NCBI RefSeq assembly: GCF_025698965.1
Contig: NZ_JAILWL010000001.1
Coordinates: forward strand, 1-61,416
DNA from: Roseibium sp.
GTDB taxonomy: Bacteria > Pseudomonadota > Alphaproteobacteria > Rhizobiales > Stappiaceae
DNA: 61,416 bases
Direction of reading: 5' to 3'
This document shows positions 30,832 to 38,848 of the stretch, one piece after another. The notes beneath the pieces are model-generated. The model saw nothing but the letters and a program-made list of their open reading frames with translations. It had not been told where the DNA came from and ran no database searches. Position numbers and translations under genes: made by a program. The first letter of the stretch is position 1. Each line of letters opens with the position of its first letter.

Positions 30832-32241
30832 CTACCAGCCGATACCGACATAGTTGGAAGAGGTTGGGGCGTTGTTGGGGATGCGGATCAGGTCCACAAC
30901 CACGGCCTCTTCCTTCTTGGACGCGAGCGCGCTCCTGAGGGCGGGAATGTTCTGGGAGACAACAACCGCATCTGCGTCCGCGAGCGCCGTTTCCGGGGTT
31001 TCCTTCAAAAACTCCGGCAAAGCGTCCACGACAGTCTGAAGATGCGGAGCCGCATGGCGCATATAGTCGAACTGTTGGCTGATATGCGGACCAGGCTGGA
31101 TGGCCGGGTCATAGGCGGTTACCTCGATGCCGGATTTCATCAACTCCGCGATCACGTCCAGAATGGGGCTCTCGCGCAAGTCGTCCGTGCCCGGTTTGAA
31201 AGCAATGCCCATGATCGCGACTTTTCTCGCACAAGTGCGTTTGACAAGATTGAGGGCCTGGCGGACCTGCTCCTGATTGGAGGGGATCAGAGCATCGAGC
31301 ATCGGCAGGTCGATGCCGAGATGATCCGCCAGGTGTGTCACGGCGCGGACTTCCTTCGGCAGGCAGGAACCGCCGAATGCGAAGCCGGGCTTCAGGTAGT
31401 AGGGGGACAGGTTGAGCTTGGTGTCCTGAACGAAAATGTCCATGACTGCATGGCTGTCGATGCCCATTGGCTTGCACAGACGGCCGATTTCATTGGCAAA
31501 GCAGACCTTGGTCGCGTGCCAGACATTGTCGACATACTTCACCAGTTCCGCGACTTCGACCGAGGTGACGATCGGATTGATATCGACCGATGCGTAGATC
31601 CTGGCCAGGGCACGGGCAGTATATTGATCGGTCACACCGAAGACCGTTTTCGGCGGTTCGTGGAAATCCGCGACGGCGCTGCCTTCACGTAGGAATTCCG
31701 GATTGAAGCAGATGCCGAAATCCTGGCCGGCGGTTTTGTGTGAATAGCGCTCGATGATCGGCTTCATCACCTTGAGCGTCGTTCCCGGAGGAACGGAGCA
31801 TCGCAGCACGATGATATGGAATGAATCCTTGACAGCAAGGGCCTCGCCGATACTGCGGGCAACCGCCTCGATTGCGCGCGTGTCGCAACCGCCGTCCTCT
31901 GCGGTCGGCGTGCCAACGGAAACAAAGGTGATGTCGGTGGTCCAGATGGCGCGCTTGATGTCAGTCGTCGCGGACAGCAGGTCATTATCGACGCCCCTCG
32001 TCAACAGTTCCCCGAGCTGATCTTCTACTATGGGGCTTTGTCCCCATGCGATGGCATCAACTTTTTTCTCATCGACGTCGACACCAACGACGCGGTGACC
32101 AAGTGAGCTGAGGCAGGCAAGCGAAACAGCGCCGACATACCCCAGACCGATCACGCTGATCGCATCCTTGAAATCCTGAATTCCGAGCTCGGAAGCGTCC
32201 AGCTTGCGGGCGAATTGTTCATTTGAGACATACATGTTCAT
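30832..32241 (-). CDS. algD: GDP-mannose 6-dehydrogenase (AlgD-like)
   Basis: GLGYVGAV, FNPEFLREG, KYVDNVWHATKVCFANEIG, and LNLSPYYLKPGFAFGGSCLPKEVRA closely follow AlgD rather than Ugd; linked to alg8/alg44. Confidence 0.85.
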   Translation of the reverse strand: MNMYVSNEQFARKLDASELGIQDFKDAISVIGLGYVGAVSLACLSSLGHRVVGVDVDEKKVDAIAWGQSPIVEDQLGELLTRGVDNDLLSATTDIKRAIWTTDITFVSVGTPTAEDGGCDTRAIEAVARSIGEALAVKDSFHIIVLRCSVPPGTTLKVMKPIIERYSHKTAGQDFGICFNPEFLREGSAVADFHEPPKTVFGVTDQYTARALARIYASVDINPIVTSVEVAELVKYVDNVWHATKVCFANEIGRLCKPMGIDSHAVMDIFVQDTKLNLSPYYLKPGFAFGGSCLPKEVRAVTHLADHLGIDLPMLDALIPSNQEQVRQALNLVKRTCARKVAIMGIAFKPGTDDLRESPILDVIAELMKSGIEVTAYDPAIQPGPHISQQFDYMRHAAPHLQTVVDALPEFLKETPETALADADAVVVSQNIPALRSALASKKEEAVVVDLIRIPNNAPTSSNYVGIGW

Positions 32242-32277
32242 TCGACTGCTCCCAGAATGTGTTCTGGCAATTTCAGA

Positions 32278-32293
32278 AACAAGGAACGTGCCA
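32278..32293 (-). promoter_or_regulatory. sigma54 -24/-12 promoter for algD
   Basis: Minus strand TGGCACG-TTCC-TTGTT; IHF-like TTTCAGTAAGTTA at 32323-32335. Confidence 0.65.
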
Positions 32294-32363
32294 AACGCAG
32301 GTTTGAAAAATTTCTTTATTTATTTCAGTAAGTTACGGTTACTGTGGCAAAGTGGGTAAAGTT

Positions 32364-32404
32364 TCGGGTTTTCGAAATTGAAAACCCGATTTTCAAAATC
32401 CAAC
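32364..32404. promoter_or_regulatory. putative upstream activator sequences (algD)
   Basis: TCGGGTTTTC-GAAATT-GAAAACCCGA (perfect 10-bp arms) plus a weaker copy, TTTCAAAATCCAAC, 21 bp further. Confidence 0.55.
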
Positions 32405-32735
32405 TTTTTAGAAGCGCAATGCGAAGGAAAAAATCGCTTACCCAGGTGTCGTGAAATTTTGAAAGGAAAGGTCCTTCAGGCAACTTCGCTTCCTGTGCGA
32501 AGCGATTTTGTCCAGACCACGACCAGCGCCATCTGAAAACGCGACCGGCAGGTCGCCCTTATTATAAAGAGTACGCGGGACCGATTGGCGTAATCCTGAA
32601 ATTCGCGATTTCAAAAAGACCCCTTTTCGTTTCGCGAAGTTCCGGCTGGATCAATCCATCTCGACTTTGCTGACGCTACCTTTAAGTAATTGGAAAGCTG
32701 ATATAAATCATAAAGTGGAGCTGATTTTGAAATTG

Positions 32736-32751
32736 TGGCCGACCGATTGCA
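32736..32751 (+). promoter_or_regulatory. sigma54 -24/-12 promoter for the HAD-NUDIX operon
   Basis: TGGCCGA-CCGA-TTGCA; IHF-like site (minus strand TTCCAATTACTTA) at 32683-32695. Confidence 0.65.
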
Positions 32752-32790
32752 TTTGCTTCTCCAGAACCAATTGAACAATGGAGAGCAGTC

Positions 32791-33633
32791 ATGTTTTCGA
32801 AAGTTGCGTTTGAGGCCATTGGTCAGGTAACCGGGCCTGAAATCGTTGACCCGCTTGCCGCTGGCGAAAAAGTCTTCCTGTTCGATCTGGATGTGCTTGT
32901 CGCGAGCCGTTTCGGTCGGATGGATCATGAATTTGCCGGCTATGTACGGGAATTTGCCCGTTCACATCCATGCTACCTGCTGACATCGGCCAACTACTCT
33001 GAGGTAATGTCGCGTCTGCCCGGGTCCGTCCGCCATGCCTTTGAAGGTGTGTTTGCCTCGTGCGGTACAGAGCTTTGGGTGAACAATGAAATACTGATCC
33101 GTCACGAACACCTTTTCTCCGACGATCTTTATGAGTTTGTCGCCAAGGCGGTCCAGCAAAGCGCCTATTCCGGGAAGGAAGCACCATTGCTGGAATGCGG
33201 GTCTGCCACCCTTCGTTTGAGCCTTGCCGGCATTCGAAGCACGGCCGGTCAACAAATGGCCTATCGGCGCTGGGAGAGAGAACATCGTGAACTTGATGTG
33301 ATTGCAGATGAAATGAAGGCCCGTTTTCCGGATCACACGGTATGCCGGGACAGCGATATCAGCCTGATGATCACACCCAATACTTTCACCAGTGCCCGGG
33401 TTCATGAACATATCCTGAAACGCCACAAGGCATCGCGCCTGATTGCCTATTTCGCCAACCGATCCGCAGGTGGATTTGCAAAACCGCTCTGCGACGCCCT
33501 GTTGACCTCGGATGTCGTGTCGACAGTGAATGGGCCGAGCGATGTTAGCCAGTTGCTCAGCTATGAAATGCGCTCAGCTCCTGATGCCGGTCAACGGCCG
33601 CACACCATGAACCGGATGCTTCAGGAGGCTTGA
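32791..33633 (+). CDS. HAD-IIB protein resembling eukaryotic/phage-type phosphomannomutase, motifs degenerate
   Basis: VFLFDLDVLVASR (motif I DxD), YLLTSANY (motif II-like) and FASCGTELW; motif IV acidic residues not visible (YFANRSAGG). Confidence 0.6.
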   Translation: MFSKVAFEAIGQVTGPEIVDPLAAGEKVFLFDLDVLVASRFGRMDHEFAGYVREFARSHPCYLLTSANYSEVMSRLPGSVRHAFEGVFASCGTELWVNNEILIRHEHLFSDDLYEFVAKAVQQSAYSGKEAPLLECGSATLRLSLAGIRSTAGQQMAYRRWEREHRELDVIADEMKARFPDHTVCRDSDISLMITPNTFTSARVHEHILKRHKASRLIAYFANRSAGGFAKPLCDALLTSDVVSTVNGPSDVSQLLSYEMRSAPDAGQRPHTMNRMLQEA

Positions 33634-33634
33634 T

Positions 33635-34219
33635 ATGAACGCCATCGATCAGAAGGGTTTTGATCGTAGCTGCTGGTCACTTGTCGAGAGCCGCAAGGTC
33701 TTTGATGCGGGCAATCGATTGCGGGTCCTGCGCCAGACGGTGTGTCTGCCCGACAATCGGATCGTGGACGATTATTACCGCATCGACCTGCCGTCATTCG
33801 CAACTATCTACGCGCTGACGGAAGACGGCAATGTCCTGCTGTTGCGTCAATACAAGCATGGCGTCGGCGAGGTTTGCCTGACATTGCCGGGAGGGCAAAT
33901 TGAACCGGGTGAAGATCCCGAATTCTCTGCCCGGCGCGAACTTCTGGAGGAGACCGGCTATGGCGGCGGCCGCTGGCTTCAAGGCCCGTCACTGGTGCTT
34001 CACGGCAACCAGAGGATTGCGCGCGCACACATCTATGTCGCGCAACATGTCATCAAGCTGGGCGAGGCAGGTTCAGGTGACCTTGAAGAGACGCAACTGG
34101 TGTTGAAGCCCCGGCAAGATCTGCGCCGTGCCATGCTTCAGGGAGAGCTGCCGATCACGACCCATGTCGCCACAATCGGCATTGCGGAAACGCTGCTTGA
34201 AGCAATATCGCGTGGGTGA
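33635..34219 (+). CDS. NUDIX hydrolase (ADP-sugar/NDP-sugar pyrophosphatase-like)
   Basis: Nudix box GQIEPGEDPEFSARRELLEETGY; LLRQYKHGVG. Confidence 0.9.
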   Translation: MNAIDQKGFDRSCWSLVESRKVFDAGNRLRVLRQTVCLPDNRIVDDYYRIDLPSFATIYALTEDGNVLLLRQYKHGVGEVCLTLPGGQIEPGEDPEFSARRELLEETGYGGGRWLQGPSLVLHGNQRIARAHIYVAQHVIKLGEAGSGDLEETQLVLKPRQDLRRAMLQGELPITTHVATIGIAETLLEAISRG

Positions 34220-34226
34220 GACGGAC

Positions 34227-34375
34227 GAAGGGAAACGATGGGGCCTTTCCCTTCTTGAATTCGGTGCCGGGATTTCACCGGCTGCGGCGGGGTGGCCTCT
34301 GACGCGATTTCCCCTCGCGCCTAGGGCCTGAAGTCCGCCCTTCAGATGGCCTACTTCTGAAACTCTTTCCCCGAC
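34227..34375. ncRNA. candidate structured non-coding RNA / multi-hairpin intergenic element
   Basis: Four consecutive hairpins: 34227-34254, 34266-34282, 34303-34319, 34322-34353. G-U extensions favour the minus strand; no convincing ORF. Confidence 0.3.
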
Positions 34376-34540
34376 TGTTTCTCTATGCCAGGGCCGTCAA
34401 CGCCTCAGTTTCGCACGGGATTTATGTGACTCAGTTCGTGCTTGCATTGTTGTTTACCATACGTTAAGAAAGTAGACAAGGTTCGTGACTCAATTTATGA
34501 AGAAAAAACTCTTCGGAAATTCGAGAAAAACGGACCTGCT

Positions 34541-35188
34541 GTGATCGAGCACAACGACGAAAGAGAATGGGAAACGCGCGTGTACGGCTATGCCCGCGTC
34601 AGCACAGAAGACCAGAACCTTGATATGCAGATCCGCGCCCTCAACGATTACGGATGCTCCTATATCTTCAAGGAAAAACGGTCTGCGTACGGGGTGAAGC
34701 GCAAACAGCTTGAATGGCTAAAAAAGAGCCTAGCGCCGGGTGATACGCTTGTTGTCTGGAAGCTGGATCGGTTGGGCCGTGATGTCGGTGAACTGATCAC
34801 GTTCATGGCAATGTTGAAGAAGAAAGAAGTGAACTTCGTCAGCCTGAATGATCAGATTGATACCCGTACGGCCATGGGAAACTTCATGTTTCATCTGTTG
34901 GCGTCATTGGCGCAGTTGGAACGCGATCTGGTAGCGGAACGAACTAGGGCAGGGATGGACGCAGCTCGTAAGCGCGGTTGGCATCCGGGGCCGGAAACAC
35001 TCATTAAGCGGTTGGAGCGGGAAGACCCGAAGCAGCTCAAGGCGCTGCGGAAAGACATCGCGGACCCGAAAATGTCTTGGCGAGCACTCCATAAGAAGTA
35101 TGGTTATGCAGTTGCAACTCTACGGCGACACTTTGAAGGTGAGCGCAAAGAGGCATTGGCCAAGTTAGCCGAATTGGATGAAGAATGA
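34541..35188 (+). CDS. small serine recombinase (resolvase/invertase family, C-terminal HTH)
   Basis: Catalytic YGYARVSTEDQN, GDTLVVWKLDRLGR, IDTRTAMGNFMF, ERDLVAERTRAGMDAARKRG; C-terminal HTH (MSWRALHKKYGYAVATLRRHF). Start uncertain (GTG 34541). Confidence 0.93.
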   Translation: MIEHNDEREWETRVYGYARVSTEDQNLDMQIRALNDYGCSYIFKEKRSAYGVKRKQLEWLKKSLAPGDTLVVWKLDRLGRDVGELITFMAMLKKKEVNFVSLNDQIDTRTAMGNFMFHLLASLAQLERDLVAERTRAGMDAARKRGWHPGPETLIKRLEREDPKQLKALRKDIADPKMSWRALHKKYGYAVATLRRHFEGERKEALAKLAELDEE

Positions 35189-35192
35189 ATAG

Positions 35193-35870
35193 GTGGCAGA
35201 GTTGTTAGGCGCATTTACTTCTAGCACGTCAGGCCTGCTGGCGCTCGGTGCAATGTTTTTCGGCGTAGTTGCATTGCTTCTAGGAGGATTTGCCGCCGCG
35301 ATTAGAGATAAAGAAAGTGCTGATGCGGAAAGCGCTTATCAAGCAAAACTAGACCAGAAAACCGACAAGATAACCGTATTGCAGGACGAAATTAGTTCTC
35401 TGCAAAGTGAGACTATTAAGATGATCACTGGAGGCGATTCATTTCCTGTGGTGAATTTGGTGCAACACCCTAAACTCGGGATGGGTAAGTTCTCCCCCGA
35501 GATTTGGGTTTCTGGGGCTTACCACCTCAGAAACGTGAAAGTCTCAATCACTATAGTAAGTGGGGCTGAGACCAATAAATATAGCTTTGAAGAAGTAAGT
35601 CTTCGTGCTTATGGCGGATTGCCTTTTGATCTTATTGTAAACGCCGCAGCGGAGGGTGGCGCTACTTTGAGTGTTCGGACATCTGCGGAAAATGGAACTT
35701 GGTACCAAAAGATCGACTTCCGGAAAGCCGACGACGGACGGTTCCAGTTCAAGACAAAGATTGTTCGTTTTGGTCACCCTCAAACGACAGTTCTTAAGAA
35801 GGACTTCGACGAGGACCTTAGCTTTGGTTCCATTGACGAAATGAAGCGGTCCCCGACGTTTGTACAATAA
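35193..35870 (+). CDS. hypothetical membrane-anchored protein (cargo)
   Basis: N-terminal TM helix, coiled-coil-like stretch and beta-rich C-terminus; its stop TAA lies in ATAAGGAGCC. Confidence 0.7.
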   Translation: MAELLGAFTSSTSGLLALGAMFFGVVALLLGGFAAAIRDKESADAESAYQAKLDQKTDKITVLQDEISSLQSETIKMITGGDSFPVVNLVQHPKLGMGKFSPEIWVSGAYHLRNVKVSITIVSGAETNKYSFEEVSLRAYGGLPFDLIVNAAAEGGATLSVRTSAENGTWYQKIDFRKADDGRFQFKTKIVRFGHPQTTVLKKDFDEDLSFGSIDEMKRSPTFVQ

Positions 35871-35876
35871 GGAGCC
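35867..35876 (+). repeat. partial copy of the element right-end motif
   Basis: ATAAGGAGCC at a gene junction. Confidence 0.55.
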
Positions 35877-35882
35877 GAGGTG

Positions 35883-36101
35883 ATGGGAAAAACGTTCCAG
35901 GTTCTCGATTTCGAGGATAGCGGCATCCACGGAATTGCGATTGCACCGATGAAAGATCGTTTGAGCGTAAACTGCACGAGCGATGGTGAGATTGATGCTG
36001 CAATCCAGAACCTGAAAGATGATGCGGACCGTATTGCCAAGGTCATGAAACGCGAACTTCGAAAGAGGAAGAAACAGCCTCTTTTCGGTCGTGACTCATA
36101 G
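35883..36101 (+). CDS. hypothetical protein (~72 aa, cargo)
   Basis: AAGGAG/GAGG RBS; ends ...GRDS* inside the repeat motif. Confidence 0.65.
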   Translation: MGKTFQVLDFEDSGIHGIAIAPMKDRLSVNCTSDGEIDAAIQNLKDDADRIAKVMKRELRKRKKQPLFGRDS

Positions 36102-36106
36102 GAGCC
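36090..36106 (+). repeat. copy of the element right-end motif
   Basis: CGTGACTCATAGGAGCC, one A shorter than the terminal copy. Confidence 0.75.
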
Positions 36107-36149
36107 TGTGAGTTGCTTGCAAATCATGGAACTAAGGAGAGTTGTAGTT

Positions 36150-36587
36150 GTGAGCGTTTGGGCAAAAGTAGAAGGCGTAGGCGGCCTAATATCCGGGGTT
36201 GCAGCATTTATCGTTGCTGGAGTTGCAATTTATCAGGCAAGTACCGCAAATCAAAAAACTGATGAACTAATAGAGAATTACAACAAGACCTTTTTCGCAA
36301 AAAATAGTGGTTTCAATAAATTGTTTCTTACTCCTGTTCGAGAGGAAAAAGTACTTACTCTTATGAACTCATTTGAAAGAGTAAACTGGGCGCCAATGAC
36401 CGTGGCGGAGTTGTGGGAGGCCGAAGAGGCTGCCGAGTTGGGGGTGAGTAAGCAAGAATTCATTCAGATCATAAGGGCAGGCTTCGGCATGGGCGTACTT
36501 AGGGAGGTCTTTCCAAGGTCAGGAGAGAAGATAGAGCGCACTGCGATTGGCAAAATTGAGTGGCGACCTGTGTTTCGCATAAATTAG
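36150..36587 (+). CDS. hypothetical membrane protein (cargo)
   Basis: N-terminal TM helix (GLISGVAAFIVAGVAIY) and possible wHTH-like C-terminus. Start uncertain (36108/36126/36150; AAGGAG precedes GTG 36150). Confidence 0.6.
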   Translation: MSVWAKVEGVGGLISGVAAFIVAGVAIYQASTANQKTDELIENYNKTFFAKNSGFNKLFLTPVREEKVLTLMNSFERVNWAPMTVAELWEAEEAAELGVSKQEFIQIIRAGFGMGVLREVFPRSGEKIERTAIGKIEWRPVFRIN

Positions 36588-36724
36588 TAGTTCGGAAAGT
36601 CAGGTAGAAACTAGGGAGGCCGTTGCAGCTATGCCCGGTGGTGACTGGAACCTAGCCGAAGCCAATGAGCGCTTTGGCGGATCTGGTCGAGCTGGTGGCA
36701 GGAAGAAAAAGTAGGTTTTTTGTT

Positions 36725-37174
36725 ATGGCTTTATCGGAATATTGGAAGAGTATAATTGCCAACACAGTTCCAATACTGGTTGGTGGAGGTTTGGTAGTTG
36801 GTGGTTTCGATTATCTAACGAAAGATCGCGGGCACGACATTGAGATGGTCAAGATAGGTGTCCAAATCCTTAGAGTGGATCCAAATAAAAATCCAGAAAT
36901 TGGAGATGCTGGGCGCGAATGGGCGATGCGTCTCATAAATCGTTATTCTGGCGAATCGCTTACGGTATCAGAAATGGATCAACTCAGAACTTCTCCCATT
37001 GTGGATTGGTACAATGATAACACCCCGAACAGCGTCTTGTATGGTGCGGGCTACAAACGGATTACTCCTAGCAAGGCGACCGCTCAATTCATTTGGGAGA
37101 ATGATAAAGAACTCGTTGATCAGATAGCAGCTCACAATCTCCAATGTGAAAAAGATGCGAGTTGTCTTGAATGA
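36725..37174 (+). CDS. hypothetical membrane protein (cargo)
   Basis: N-terminal TM helix (IIANTVPILVGGGLVVGGF); stop TGA is the first triplet of TGACTCATAAGGAGC. Start 36725 or 36665. Confidence 0.6.
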   Translation: MALSEYWKSIIANTVPILVGGGLVVGGFDYLTKDRGHDIEMVKIGVQILRVDPNKNPEIGDAGREWAMRLINRYSGESLTVSEMDQLRTSPIVDWYNDNTPNSVLYGAGYKRITPSKATAQFIWENDKELVDQIAAHNLQCEKDASCLE

Positions 37175-37186
37175 CTCATAAGGAGC
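37172..37186 (+). repeat. copy of the element right-end motif
   Basis: TGACTCATAAGGAGC, 15/15 identical to the terminal copy. Confidence 0.8.
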
Positions 37187-37190
37187 GGAC

Positions 37191-37364
37191 ATGTCTGACG
37201 ATAGCGTGAACCATGACCATTTGGTCGGCAGATCGTGGTCTGCATATAGCGCGATGATCAACGAAGCGCAGGCACTCGAAAACACAGCTCAGCGACTACG
37301 TGAGCGGGCAGCAGAATTGCACTTGGTTTTAGACCCGCCTGCTGAAAAAGAACGTGACTCATAA
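37191..37364 (+). CDS. hypothetical protein (57 aa, cargo; absent from the ORF track)
   Basis: MSDDSVNHDHLVGRSWSAYSAMINEAQALENTAQRLRERAAELHLVLDPPAEKERDS. RBS comes from the motif copy at 37172 and the stop from the copy at 37353. Confidence 0.6.
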   Translation: MSDDSVNHDHLVGRSWSAYSAMINEAQALENTAQRLRERAAELHLVLDPPAEKERDS

Positions 37365-37370
37365 GGAGCC
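37353..37370 (+). repeat. terminal right-end (attR-like) motif
   Basis: CGTGACTCATAAGGAGCC; host-like GC-rich sequence (stop of the convergent regulator at 37373) resumes immediately after. Confidence 0.8.
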
Positions 37371-37372
37371 CT

Positions 37373-38848
37373 CTACAGCTCCGCCTCCGAAAGTTCCGCT
37401 TCCTCATCCTCATCACTCTCACCATCCTGCGCTGCCCAGATTTCCTTCTTGCGGTAGAGCGTCGACGGGCTGACCTGAAGGACGCGGGCGGTCTTCGGCA
37501 GGCTGCCGCCGCACGCGTCTATGGTTGCCTCGATCATTTGCCGTTCCAGCGTGTCGAACGACTGACCGAGTGCGAGGGTCAGGCTGGGCCAGGAACCGCT
37601 TGCCGCCGCCGCGACAGGGGTGATGCCTTGCTGCGGTGAGGGGACCTGCAGCGGAACGGACCCGGAGTTTCGCGATGCGGAGGGAACGCGCCCCTGAAGC
37701 GTCGACAACATGTCCACATCAACGATTGGACCTTCGTTCAGGACAACAAGATTGCGGATTGTATTTTGCATCTCCCGGACGTTTCCAGCCCAGGCGTGGG
37801 CCATCAGCGCTTCTTCCGCTTCCACGGAAAATCCGTCGAACTGTTTCCCTTCCTCTGACGCGAATTGCGTCAGGAAATGCCGGGCGAGTTCGAGAATATC
37901 CGCCCCGCGCGCCCTGAGCGGAGGTAGTCCGATCGGCAGGACATGAAGCCGGTAGTAAAGATCCTCTCGGAAACGGTTGGCTTCAACCTCTTCCAGCGGA
38001 TCCCGGTTGGTCGCGCAGACAATGCGCACATCGATTTTCTTCAGGCTGTCGCTGCCGACTTTCTGGATCGTGCCGCTCTGCAAGAACCGCAGCAGTTTGG
38101 CCTGAAGGTTCAGCTCCAGTTCACAGATTTCGTCCAGAAACAGTGTACCGCCGTCAGCGCGGGCGGCCGCTCCGTCGCGGTCTGACGTTGCACCGGTAAA
38201 GGCACCTTTGACGTGACCGAAGATCTCCGATTCAATCAGGTCTTTCGGGATGGCCGCGCAATTGAGCGGGATAAAGGGCCGCTTGGCCCGCGGGCTGGAT
38301 TTGTGGATGGCCTCCGCGCAGACTTCCTTGCCCGTTCCGCTTTCACCGGTAATGAAAACAGAAGCATTGGAGCGGGCCACGCTTTCAATCATCTTGTAAA
38401 CCGCGGTCATCGGCAGGGAAGACCCGACAAACCCGTGATGTGCCTTGGGATTTGACGGCTGCCTGACCTCCTCGACAACTTCGGTCAGGGTTTCACGCTC
38501 AAGGGCATTTCTTGTGGTGGTCACCAGCCGTTCCTCGGCAACGGGTTTGACGAGGAAGTCGTAGGCACCGGCCTGCATGGCATCGACGGCGGTCTTGATC
38601 GAGCCGGAGCTGGTGACCACGACCACGGTCACCGGGAGTTGCTCTTCCCGAATGGTGCTGAGCACCTCCAGCCCGTTCATATCCGGCAATTGCAGATCCA
38701 GGAGTACGACGCTGACGCCGCCCTTGCGCAGCCGCTCGAGCGCCGCCTTGCCAGTCTCCACATGAAGCGTGTCAATGCCGGCCCGTGACAGATGGTGACC
38801 ATAGACGGTGGCCAGCGGCAGGGCGTCTTCAACAATCAGGACTTTCAA
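37373..38848 (-). CDS. sigma54-dependent response regulator (REC-AAA+-Fis HTH), LuxO-like
   Basis: LLDLQLPDMNG, GESGTGKE, GAFTGA, FREDLYYRL; C-terminal VSPSTLYRKKEIW resembles LuxO-type tails. Confidence 0.9.
   Translation of the reverse strand: MKVLIVEDALPLATVYGHHLSRAGIDTLHVETGKAALERLRKGGVSVVLLDLQLPDMNGLEVLSTIREEQLPVTVVVVTSSGSIKTAVDAMQAGAYDFLVKPVAEERLVTTTRNALERETLTEVVEEVRQPSNPKAHHGFVGSSLPMTAVYKMIESVARSNASVFITGESGTGKEVCAEAIHKSSPRAKRPFIPLNCAAIPKDLIESEIFGHVKGAFTGATSDRDGAAARADGGTLFLDEICELELNLQAKLLRFLQSGTIQKVGSDSLKKIDVRIVCATNRDPLEEVEANRFREDLYYRLHVLPIGLPPLRARGADILELARHFLTQFASEEGKQFDGFSVEAEEALMAHAWAGNVREMQNTIRNLVVLNEGPIVDVDMLSTLQGRVPSASRNSGSVPLQVPSPQQGITPVAAAASGSWPSLTLALGQSFDTLERQMIEATIDACGGSLPKTARVLQVSPSTLYRKKEIWAAQDGESDEDEEAELSEAEL

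Follow-up and report, generated by a model that had tools for sequence, protein, structure and literature searches.

In integrons, the integrase IntI heads an array of single-gene cassettes with attI and attC sites, and arrays without an integrase (clusters of attC sites lacking integron-integrases, CALIN) also occur. In phages, it has long been asked whether the precise swaps of accessory genes result from illegitimate recombination and selection, from short homology or from dedicated sites. The systems that are closest by description to the locus considered here are the start-associated sequences (SAS, with the extended form ESAS) of Cluster K mycobacteriophages (PMC3203893) and the promoter-early stem-loop (PeSL) cassettes of T4-type phages (PMC2839356); statements on papers cited by PMC number refer to the available parts of these papers. 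The locus lies in a 61,416-nt stretch of a marine Roseibium chromosome (NZ_JAILWL010000001.1, positions 1 to 61,416; the window), where a small serine recombinase and several short genes form an insert of approximately 3.1 kb (approximately 34242-37368). In the original prediction, made from the sequence of the window, this insert was a simple element, 34419-37367, excised through a symmetric 26-bp site with a GA core. Sequence comparison showed that it is built as a phage-type two-armed cassette module, the cassettes and outer ends of which lie on short AGG-NN-C(C/G) junctions.

The NUDIX hydrolase and sigma-54 regulator genes flanking the insert were adjacent in 15 of 16 loci of relatives, which therefore lack the insert at this gene pair, and the stretch had thus been correctly recognized as an insertion. 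The relatives compared were other species, the nearest having approximately 75% DNA identity. The spacer between the two genes, measured from stop codon to stop codon, was 16-39 nt at 14 of 15 loci. At the remaining one (L019, genome G004) it was 305 nt, and a separate small insertion was found there at the same site. Placing the ends of the insert at 34242-34243 and 37367-37368 gave an empty spacer of 28 nt, as in the relatives, whereas the ends proposed originally gave 206 nt. In addition, window positions 34242-34426 were 86% identical over 185 columns to prophage L048; this homology began exactly at a minus-strand junction-type sequence and ran across the left end that had been placed at 34419. 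In L191, the equivalent first junction was located 314 nt upstream of the recombinase match. The right end had been placed correctly to within approximately 2 nt. The right core lies 4 nt from the convergent host stop codon, and the left core lies 22 nt from the opposite host stop codon. The outer cores are GG and AG in the window and GG and GG in L052; IS607-type exchange at GG without target duplication was examined here by comparison with other species. The insert is a genuine mobile module, larger than proposed and otherwise built, and its anatomy is well supported.

All of the letters on which the symmetric site had been based were present, namely GGA at 34418-34420 and 37365-37367, the flanking 12-mers, both copies of GTGACTCA and the imperfect 30-bp palindrome (Table 1). 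The joined 12-2-12 site also reached the claimed score of 8/12, as did 18 of 6806 nearby GA-by-GA pairings, but its role as a conserved symmetric crossover site was not supported, since the GA core and the 26-bp 12-2-12 arrangement were conserved in no homologue. The score arose because both places carry the near-palindromic heptamer TGACTCA in one and the same orientation. This heptamer occurs five times on the plus strand of the insert (34427, 34486, 36092, 37172 and 37355). The copies at 36092 and 37172 are internal, and each overlaps the stop codon of a small gene and the ribosome site of the next; a shorter form is found at 35868. Therefore, the supposed right end is one copy of the junction motif of a cassette array, and this motif does not define the end of an element. 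The check proposed for the upstream end motif was run: the GGA-containing left motif was found at 0 of 7 other full-length recombinases of the same clade (L027, L031, L047, L066, L146/L196, L191 and L192), and in L027 and L191 the block shared with the window begins just past this motif. In spite of the correct letters, the 8/12 symmetry and the nearly exact right end, the model of a simple element excised through this site was largely refuted and is very improbable, considering the prophage homology over its left end, the missing left motif, the 206-nt spacer and the internal copies of the motif.

A common plan was found at the loci of this clade (relatives 44-79% identical). A leftward array on the minus strand is followed by a divergent control region, the recombinase gene and a rightward array on the plus strand. 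The short genes of the leftward array are joined by AGG-CC-C(C/G) (class 2), and those of the rightward array by (A/G)GG-AG-C(C/G) (class 1). At 11 clade loci, 30 class-1 and 0 class-2 junctions were counted downstream within 2.5 kb, and 19 class-2 and 0 class-1 junctions upstream; the wrong strands contained none. An A-rich filter was used in these counts; nine of the 11 loci were reached via the protein or are the window itself, and L050 and L146/L196 were first reached via the motif. For comparison, the class-1/class-2 ratio downstream of 82 ordinary resolvase loci was 3/1 in 133 kb, and the class-2/class-1 ratio upstream of them was 1/3 in 142 kb. When 21 heads were tallied without the filter, AG was the core of 68 of 124 AGG-NN-C(C/G) sites downstream, and CC of 67 of 137 sites upstream, with four sites of the opposite class in each case.

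The strict class-1 motif, GTGACTCA-NNN-GGAGC, was present in 46 copies in 21 of 72 Roseibium genomes, and the reversed control gave one match. Outside Roseibium, this motif occurred at the level of chance (5/300 other genomes of the order versus 4 control matches), and the wider range of the module is therefore represented by L066, L265 and L318 only. A scan of viral contigs with a class-2 15-mer gave 52 loci, none of which had an array or a head gene, and all were read as chance matches. The modules sit after the lysis genes of prophages that differ in their structural genes, several of these assignments having been made by eye; relatives of the clade enzyme were mostly found in prophages, between two divergent arrays. 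Modules were also found as phage-free islets between host genes, and several islets end on junctions. Integration of the whole prophage by the module was considered and rejected for G008, in which an integrase-like open reading frame (ORF) lies at the far end, as judged from position and by eye.

The arrays were then compared with each other. Among the ends of alignments with at least 85% identity, 19 of 35 lay within 10 nt of the motif in both partners, whereas random positions gave a mean of 1.7 of 38. Prophages L031 and L063, which belong to one genome, have in common units of 243 bp (100% identity), 311 bp (98.7%) and 301 bp (99.7%), and the 243-bp and 311-bp units stand in opposite order in them (A-B versus B-A). 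In L027, a 387-bp unit (99.2%) is repeated non-tandemly, 1.8 kb apart; the tandem copies of units in L192 and L206 could be assembly errors. All of these units are bounded by junctions at both ends. Past the unit, identity often extended only over AGGAGC or AGGCCC (6-8 nt), and in two comparisons it ended right after the 2-bp core. According to rough gene calls, 43 of 60 class-1 units contain a forward gene, four contain a reversed gene, and 13 contain several genes or none; units with a reversed gene and geneless units (123-125 nt) retain junctions in the same direction. Judging by the junction-bounded units found in new orders, independently mobile single-gene cassettes, as known from integrons, appear to be present.

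Joins of module to host DNA were found on cores and without a following start codon at both ends of the insert, at both ends of L052, at the left end of L056 and at the right end of L031. L056 begins on a class-2 junction, and prophage L031 finishes on a class-1 junction beside a host-type gene. Three species carry different islets at the mgtE spot; one of these, L052, has a class-2 junction at the left and an AGG-GG-CC join at the right, and L050 and L159 show looser versions. Both at this spot (L050, L052, L159) and at the oligopeptidase spot (L054, L056), the same chromosomal sites hold different cassette sets in related species, which suggests that cassette turnover continues after insertion.

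The crossover identity, often only 6-8 nt, is far below the 23-27 bp needed by Red-beta (PMC3945230), although exchange by other routes is possible. Serine recombinases, including IS607, exchange strands over a 2-bp core that must match in both partners (PMC6188088), and the two junction classes therefore fit this type of exchange. A site-specific cut at the junction is fairly probable, since breakpoints are sharp although the partners share just 6-8 nt, joins to host DNA fall on cores, and the arrays are separated by their 2-bp cores. If this likely cut is responsible for the swapping, the module would work as an integron-like store of genes.

The head gene of the insert encodes a small serine recombinase that is intact and carries a helical DNA-binding domain at its C-terminus, as had been recognized originally. 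It has the PF00239 catalytic domain with the YxRVS and DRLxR motifs, and residues R17, S19, D74, R75 and R78 (numbered from 34547) were invariant in 37 of 37 aligned homologues. Structure modelling and a fold search matched the enzyme to Tn3/gamma-delta resolvases, with a long helix E, an arm and the C-terminal helical domain, for which the Pfam search gave no HTH_7 match. The catalytic domain begins at residue 12 of the structure model, so that there is no N-terminal DNA-binding domain of the IS607 type. The eight array-heading enzymes tested formed one clade in a quick tree (Shimodaira-Hasegawa-like approximate likelihood ratio test support of 98); this tree cannot place the second head family, X, described below. 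Close relatives (E<=1e-45) were found in 6 of 72 Roseibium genomes and on a few virus and metagenome contigs. A metagenome scan with whole-protein alignment gave 80 loci, mostly ordinary resolvases, which were used as controls, and one clade member (L066). No clade member was found in cultured phages, where the best among the matches listed were invertases with 42-47% identity.

Inspection of ORFs and Pfam matches confirmed that the insert contains no DDE or Tn3 transposase and no TnpB. Terminal inverted repeats of the Tn3 type were likewise absent from its repeats, and the repeat scan of the insert gave no inverted pair of symmetric 26-bp sites of the Hin/Gin/Cin type. For the crossover, the enzyme is the only candidate in view; it has retained its catalytic site, and neither a hix-like nor a Tn3 substrate lies nearby. 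Integration at a minimal target, as proposed originally, is plausible; the accompanying statement, which limited integration and excision to large or IS607-type serine recombinases, overlooked the resolvase-like integrase of phiRSM (PMC4471427).

The control region between the two arms is conserved in L027 and L191 and differs at more distant heads. It is likely an operator or a res-like site with divergent promoters. A sigma-70 consensus scan found no promoter in this region; for positions 34200-37450 of the window as a whole, no promoter-like site was found, and terminators were at the level of chance.

Four of five virus records with the motif had no PF00239 match. The suggestion that these provirus arrays are headless was dropped, because in G374, G373, G058 and others the head position is occupied by a protein of 180-210 aa, referred to as family X; in G372 and in a 10-kb stretch of G375, the searches run gave neither a live nor a dead head. 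HHalign showed that family X and the enzyme are homologous (probability 96-98%), and the structure model of family X matched resolvases. However, serine occupies the catalytic column in only approximately 8 of 117 members, DRLxR is present in 2 of 117, and helix E is shorter, i.e., the family is a catalytically dead resolvase homologue. At 14 loci headed by family X, most of them found through the motif, the class-1/class-2 ratio was 40/2 downstream, and the class-2/class-1 ratio was 21/0 upstream. A viral scan with a single family-X protein gave one locus. Exchange between live-headed and dead-headed arrays was found within one genome. Of the loci with a live enzyme, 3 of 8 had junction-bounded duplicates, compared with 0 of 8 of those with a dead homologue (p=0.2, not significant), which weakly favours the live-enzyme loci. 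In members of family X (L209:9922-10500 and relatives), which stand at divergent phage promoters, the motif E-x-x-(T/S)-G-R is conserved, and these proteins have a GRP arm and a helical domain at the C-terminus. The G058 prophage (L208/L209) contains two modules with two different X genes, and their class-2 arrays meet head-on.

Several observations weigh against site-specific exchange by the head enzyme. Many arrays are headed by family X, which comprises 347 clusters at 50% identity and occurs in 10 of 72 Roseibium genomes, compared with 6 of 72 for the live enzyme. The GTGACTCA arm is present in 16 of 40 junctions under live heads and in 10 of 43 under X heads, while the C-terminal domains of these heads are only 11-67% identical. 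It is therefore unlikely that the helix-turn-helix domain is the sole reader of the junction, and this is the main argument on this side. The junctions are not symmetric 12-2-12 sites, the outer cores of the insert differ (GG versus AG), and the left ends of L030, L044 and L057 lie off junctions. The junctions double as stop and ribosome signals, and 56 of 68 class-1 and 56 of 66 class-2 junctions precede a start codon, as is characteristic of SAS; exchange through short homology would also keep the two classes apart. Related loci are not independent, and since the motif itself led to L050, L146/L196 and most X loci, the association of heads with junctions is partly circular.

An alternative explanation is that the junctions are translation-coupling signals, that genes are exchanged through short homology with selection for whole genes, and that the head, live or dead, only regulates the divergent promoters. 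The overlap with stop codons, the position before starts and the frequency of dead heads are consistent with this explanation, as is the fact that the junctions do not co-vary with the DNA-binding domain of the head. Moreover, the letters AGG-AG-CC are also found in the Cluster K SAS, for which a function in translation initiation was proposed (PMC3203893), and the PeSL repeats of T4-type phages yield mini-circles of genes by recombination between repeats (PMC2839356). However, a crossover identity of often 6-8 nt is not expected from it, and joins to host DNA fall on cores beside the stop codons of convergent host genes, where a ribosome site would serve no purpose. In addition, AGG-CC-C is a poor match to a Shine-Dalgarno sequence, yet it is equally conserved and strictly confined to one side; the AAGGAG sites of the host itself show no preference for a following CCG or CGG (141/2277); and units with a reversed gene or without a gene exist. 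Taken together, this explanation is possible but somewhat doubtful.

The crossover could also be site-specific at the core but performed by another host or phage enzyme, the resolvase-fold proteins only marking and regulating the module. This would account for the sharp breakpoints, for the same junctions under very different heads and for the arrays in proviruses without PF00239 (4/5 records). Nevertheless, it appears unlikely: Pfam scans of 192 neighbour proteins, size-filtered from 220 ORFs, revealed no other gene common to the arrays, and it is not explained why the live clade has retained its catalytic residues with no other substrate in view. The complete model, in which this serine recombinase itself catalyses the site-specific crossover at the 2-bp core, is the most likely of these explanations, although it falls somewhat short of being probable.

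In this enzyme-driven model, two junctions with the same core would recombine, and a cassette circle would be excised or inserted. Matching of the cores would keep the two arms apart and fix the orientation of the cassettes. If the outer class-1 and class-2 junctions recombined with each other, the complete module would be set free as a circle whose AGG/CCT symmetry is directed inward, and this circle could then integrate at a minimal GG-NN-CC-like host site, as may have occurred in the window. The enzyme probably also represses the divergent promoters. A dead homologue would keep the repressor role only, and the arrays that it heads would be served in trans.

The features of the insert and of its flanks are given in Table 1. 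No Pfam, PHROG or PADLOC match was found for the cargo genes. The leader of the leftward array (34244-34426) was ruled out as a known or unusually stable RNA, since no Rfam family was found in it or elsewhere in 33500-38000, and its fold was no better than that of shuffled sequences (z -0.5). One junction-like arm is fused to the 3' tail of a family X gene. Other truncated X genes (L055, L232, L233) begin close behind junction-like letters; for L051-L053 this was not clear by eye, as all of these cases were judged. The X-gene tail directly behind a junction arm and the truncations close behind junction-like letters suggest capture at cryptic cores.

Table 1. Coordinates of the module and of the flanking host genes in the window
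Feature	Position	Strand	Observation
Host NUDIX hydrolase gene, left flank, outside module	33635..34219	+	PF00293
Left outer junction, class 2	34242..34255	-	AGG-CC-CC on minus strand; 2-bp core 34242-34243; proposed true left end
Leader of leftward (class-2) array, non-coding	34244..34426	-	86% identical to L048; no cassette behind leader in this genome
Control region between divergent arms	34426..34540	.	GTGACTCA at 34426 and 34485; imperfect 30-bp palindrome 34450-34479
Small serine recombinase, 215 aa, GTG start, catalytic residues intact	34541..35188	+	PF00239 E=3e-42
Cargo gene, 225 aa, N-terminal membrane segment	35193..35870	+	ORF; unnamed Atlas cluster only
Class-1 junction	35868..35877	+	Stop codon and AGG-AG-CCG; core 35873-35874
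Cassette gene, 73 aa	35880..36101	+	40%-identical homologue in array of recombinase-headed phage L146
Class-1 junction with GTGACTCA arm	36091..36106	+	Core 36103-36104
Cassette gene, up to 159 aa	36108..36587	+	ORF; no Pfam match
Junction-like arm (AGG 36613-36615) fused to 3' tail of family X (dead-resolvase) gene	36613..36714	+	83% identical to X gene end in L063; profile E=2.3e-8
Cargo gene, 150-169 aa by start choice	36665..37174	+	C-terminal part: homologues near two other clade recombinases
Class-1 junction with TGACTCA arm	37172..37188	+	Core 37184-37185
Cassette gene, 57 aa	37191..37364	+	Stop codon inside last junction
Right outer junction, class 1	37355..37368	+	12-nt arm 37355-37366; core AG 37367-37368
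Host sigma-54 response regulator gene, right flank, outside module	37373..38848	-	PF00158/PF00072

The GTGACTCA arm (window 34426-37361) contains GANTC, the site that is methylated by CcrM in alphaproteobacteria. This sequence is infrequent in the genome (1.28/kb, compared with 1.6-4.8 for four control patterns), and it stands at the arm position in 23 of 68 class-1 junctions. Cell-cycle control through GANTC in the junction arm is possible.

Further observations were made at and near the modules. Six Roseibium genomes (L321-L326) carry, in different neighbourhoods, a segment of 1.7 kb or more that includes a luxR-type regulator and starts at a class-1 junction or beside one. The interpretation that host DNA resumes at the junction before this segment was ruled out, since the segment starts at or by the junction in all six genomes that carry it; therefore, the luxR segment is a mobile unit in its own right. 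At two unrelated loci (L162 and L164, after mgtE, and L324 and L326), host stop codons are followed by a short sequence that ends in CTCATAA; it may be what remains of a junction or the terminal part of a small repeat element. Upstream of the NUDIX gene, between a UDP-sugar dehydrogenase-like gene and a 280-aa gene with no Pfam match, the GC content drops to 0.48 (window 32000-33000).

With respect to the question posed above, the module makes the origin of precise gene swaps in phages testable, since it offers a single 215-aa enzyme and defined junctions and leads to the prediction that AG pairs with AG only and CC with CC only. If the enzyme is not responsible, base-exact gene exchange at 6-8 nt of identity would still be left, together with a large family of dead recombinases that seem to have been put to new use at the promoters of phages. 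A literature search that covered few subscription journals and no supplements revealed no paper on this layout; the available part of PMC8987985 mentions resolvases and invertases only.

The Cluster K repeats resemble the junctions in that SAS/ESAS are one-directional 13-bp repeats with AGG-AG-CC before the starts of small non-structural genes (PMC3203893). However, a translation role was proposed for them, and the available text reports no cassette-exact exchange, recombinase, second repeat class or chromosomal islets. The PeSL likewise lie between ORFans, genes are gained and lost there, and mini-circles were shown experimentally (PMC2839356); each of these units carries a promoter-terminator module, whereas here a short junction, a shared control region and a resolvase-fold head were found. 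IS607 likewise relies on serine chemistry at a 2-bp core, its target is hardly specified (GG), and the short repeats at its ends are direct and not inverted, but its TnpA has an N-terminal DNA-binding domain, usually in company with a second ORF (PMC6188088), whereas the enzyme here has a C-terminal domain and a cassette array. In phiRSM, integration and excision of a mobile unit are both the work of a small serine recombinase, which acts at a 13-bp tRNA-Ser site, and cassette arrays are absent (PMC4471427). The Hin/Gin/Cin invertases and the Tn3/gamma-delta resolvases share the fold and the catalytic residues of the enzyme. Unlike in these systems, there are no inverted hix-like sites, invertible tail-fibre segment or Tn3 transposase here, and the junctions are asymmetric. 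The module belongs to none of the Hin/Gin, Tn3 and IS607 systems.

The likeness to integrons consists in a recombinase-headed array, precise reshuffling of cassettes, geneless and reversed cassettes and arrays without an active enzyme. The integron is headed by a tyrosine integrase, IntI, whereas the head here is a small serine recombinase or its dead homologue. Junctions of approximately 7-20 nt take the place of attC-like hairpins: the logo of 63 sites showed no inverted-repeat box beyond approximately 30 nt, and no Rfam family was found in 33500-38000. Further differences are the two divergent arrays with different 2-bp cores, the location in temperate phages and the enzyme gene being co-directional with one array. 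Judged by its sequence, the module thus appears to resemble an integron in its working, but it lacks the defining IntI and attC. It is tentatively proposed that temperate phages of alphaproteobacteria carry an undescribed analogue of the integron, in which a small serine recombinase would capture, excise and reorder single-gene cassettes at junctions of approximately 7 conserved bases in the overlap of stop codon and ribosome site, in two divergent arrays separated by their cores. New cassettes would arise from a junction arm and cryptic cores in genes, arrays would be dropped in full or in part into host chromosomes, and dead homologues would regulate sister arrays. If the enzyme does perform these reactions, the module would be the serine-recombinase counterpart of the integron, through which phage genes could enter chromosomes without a prophage.

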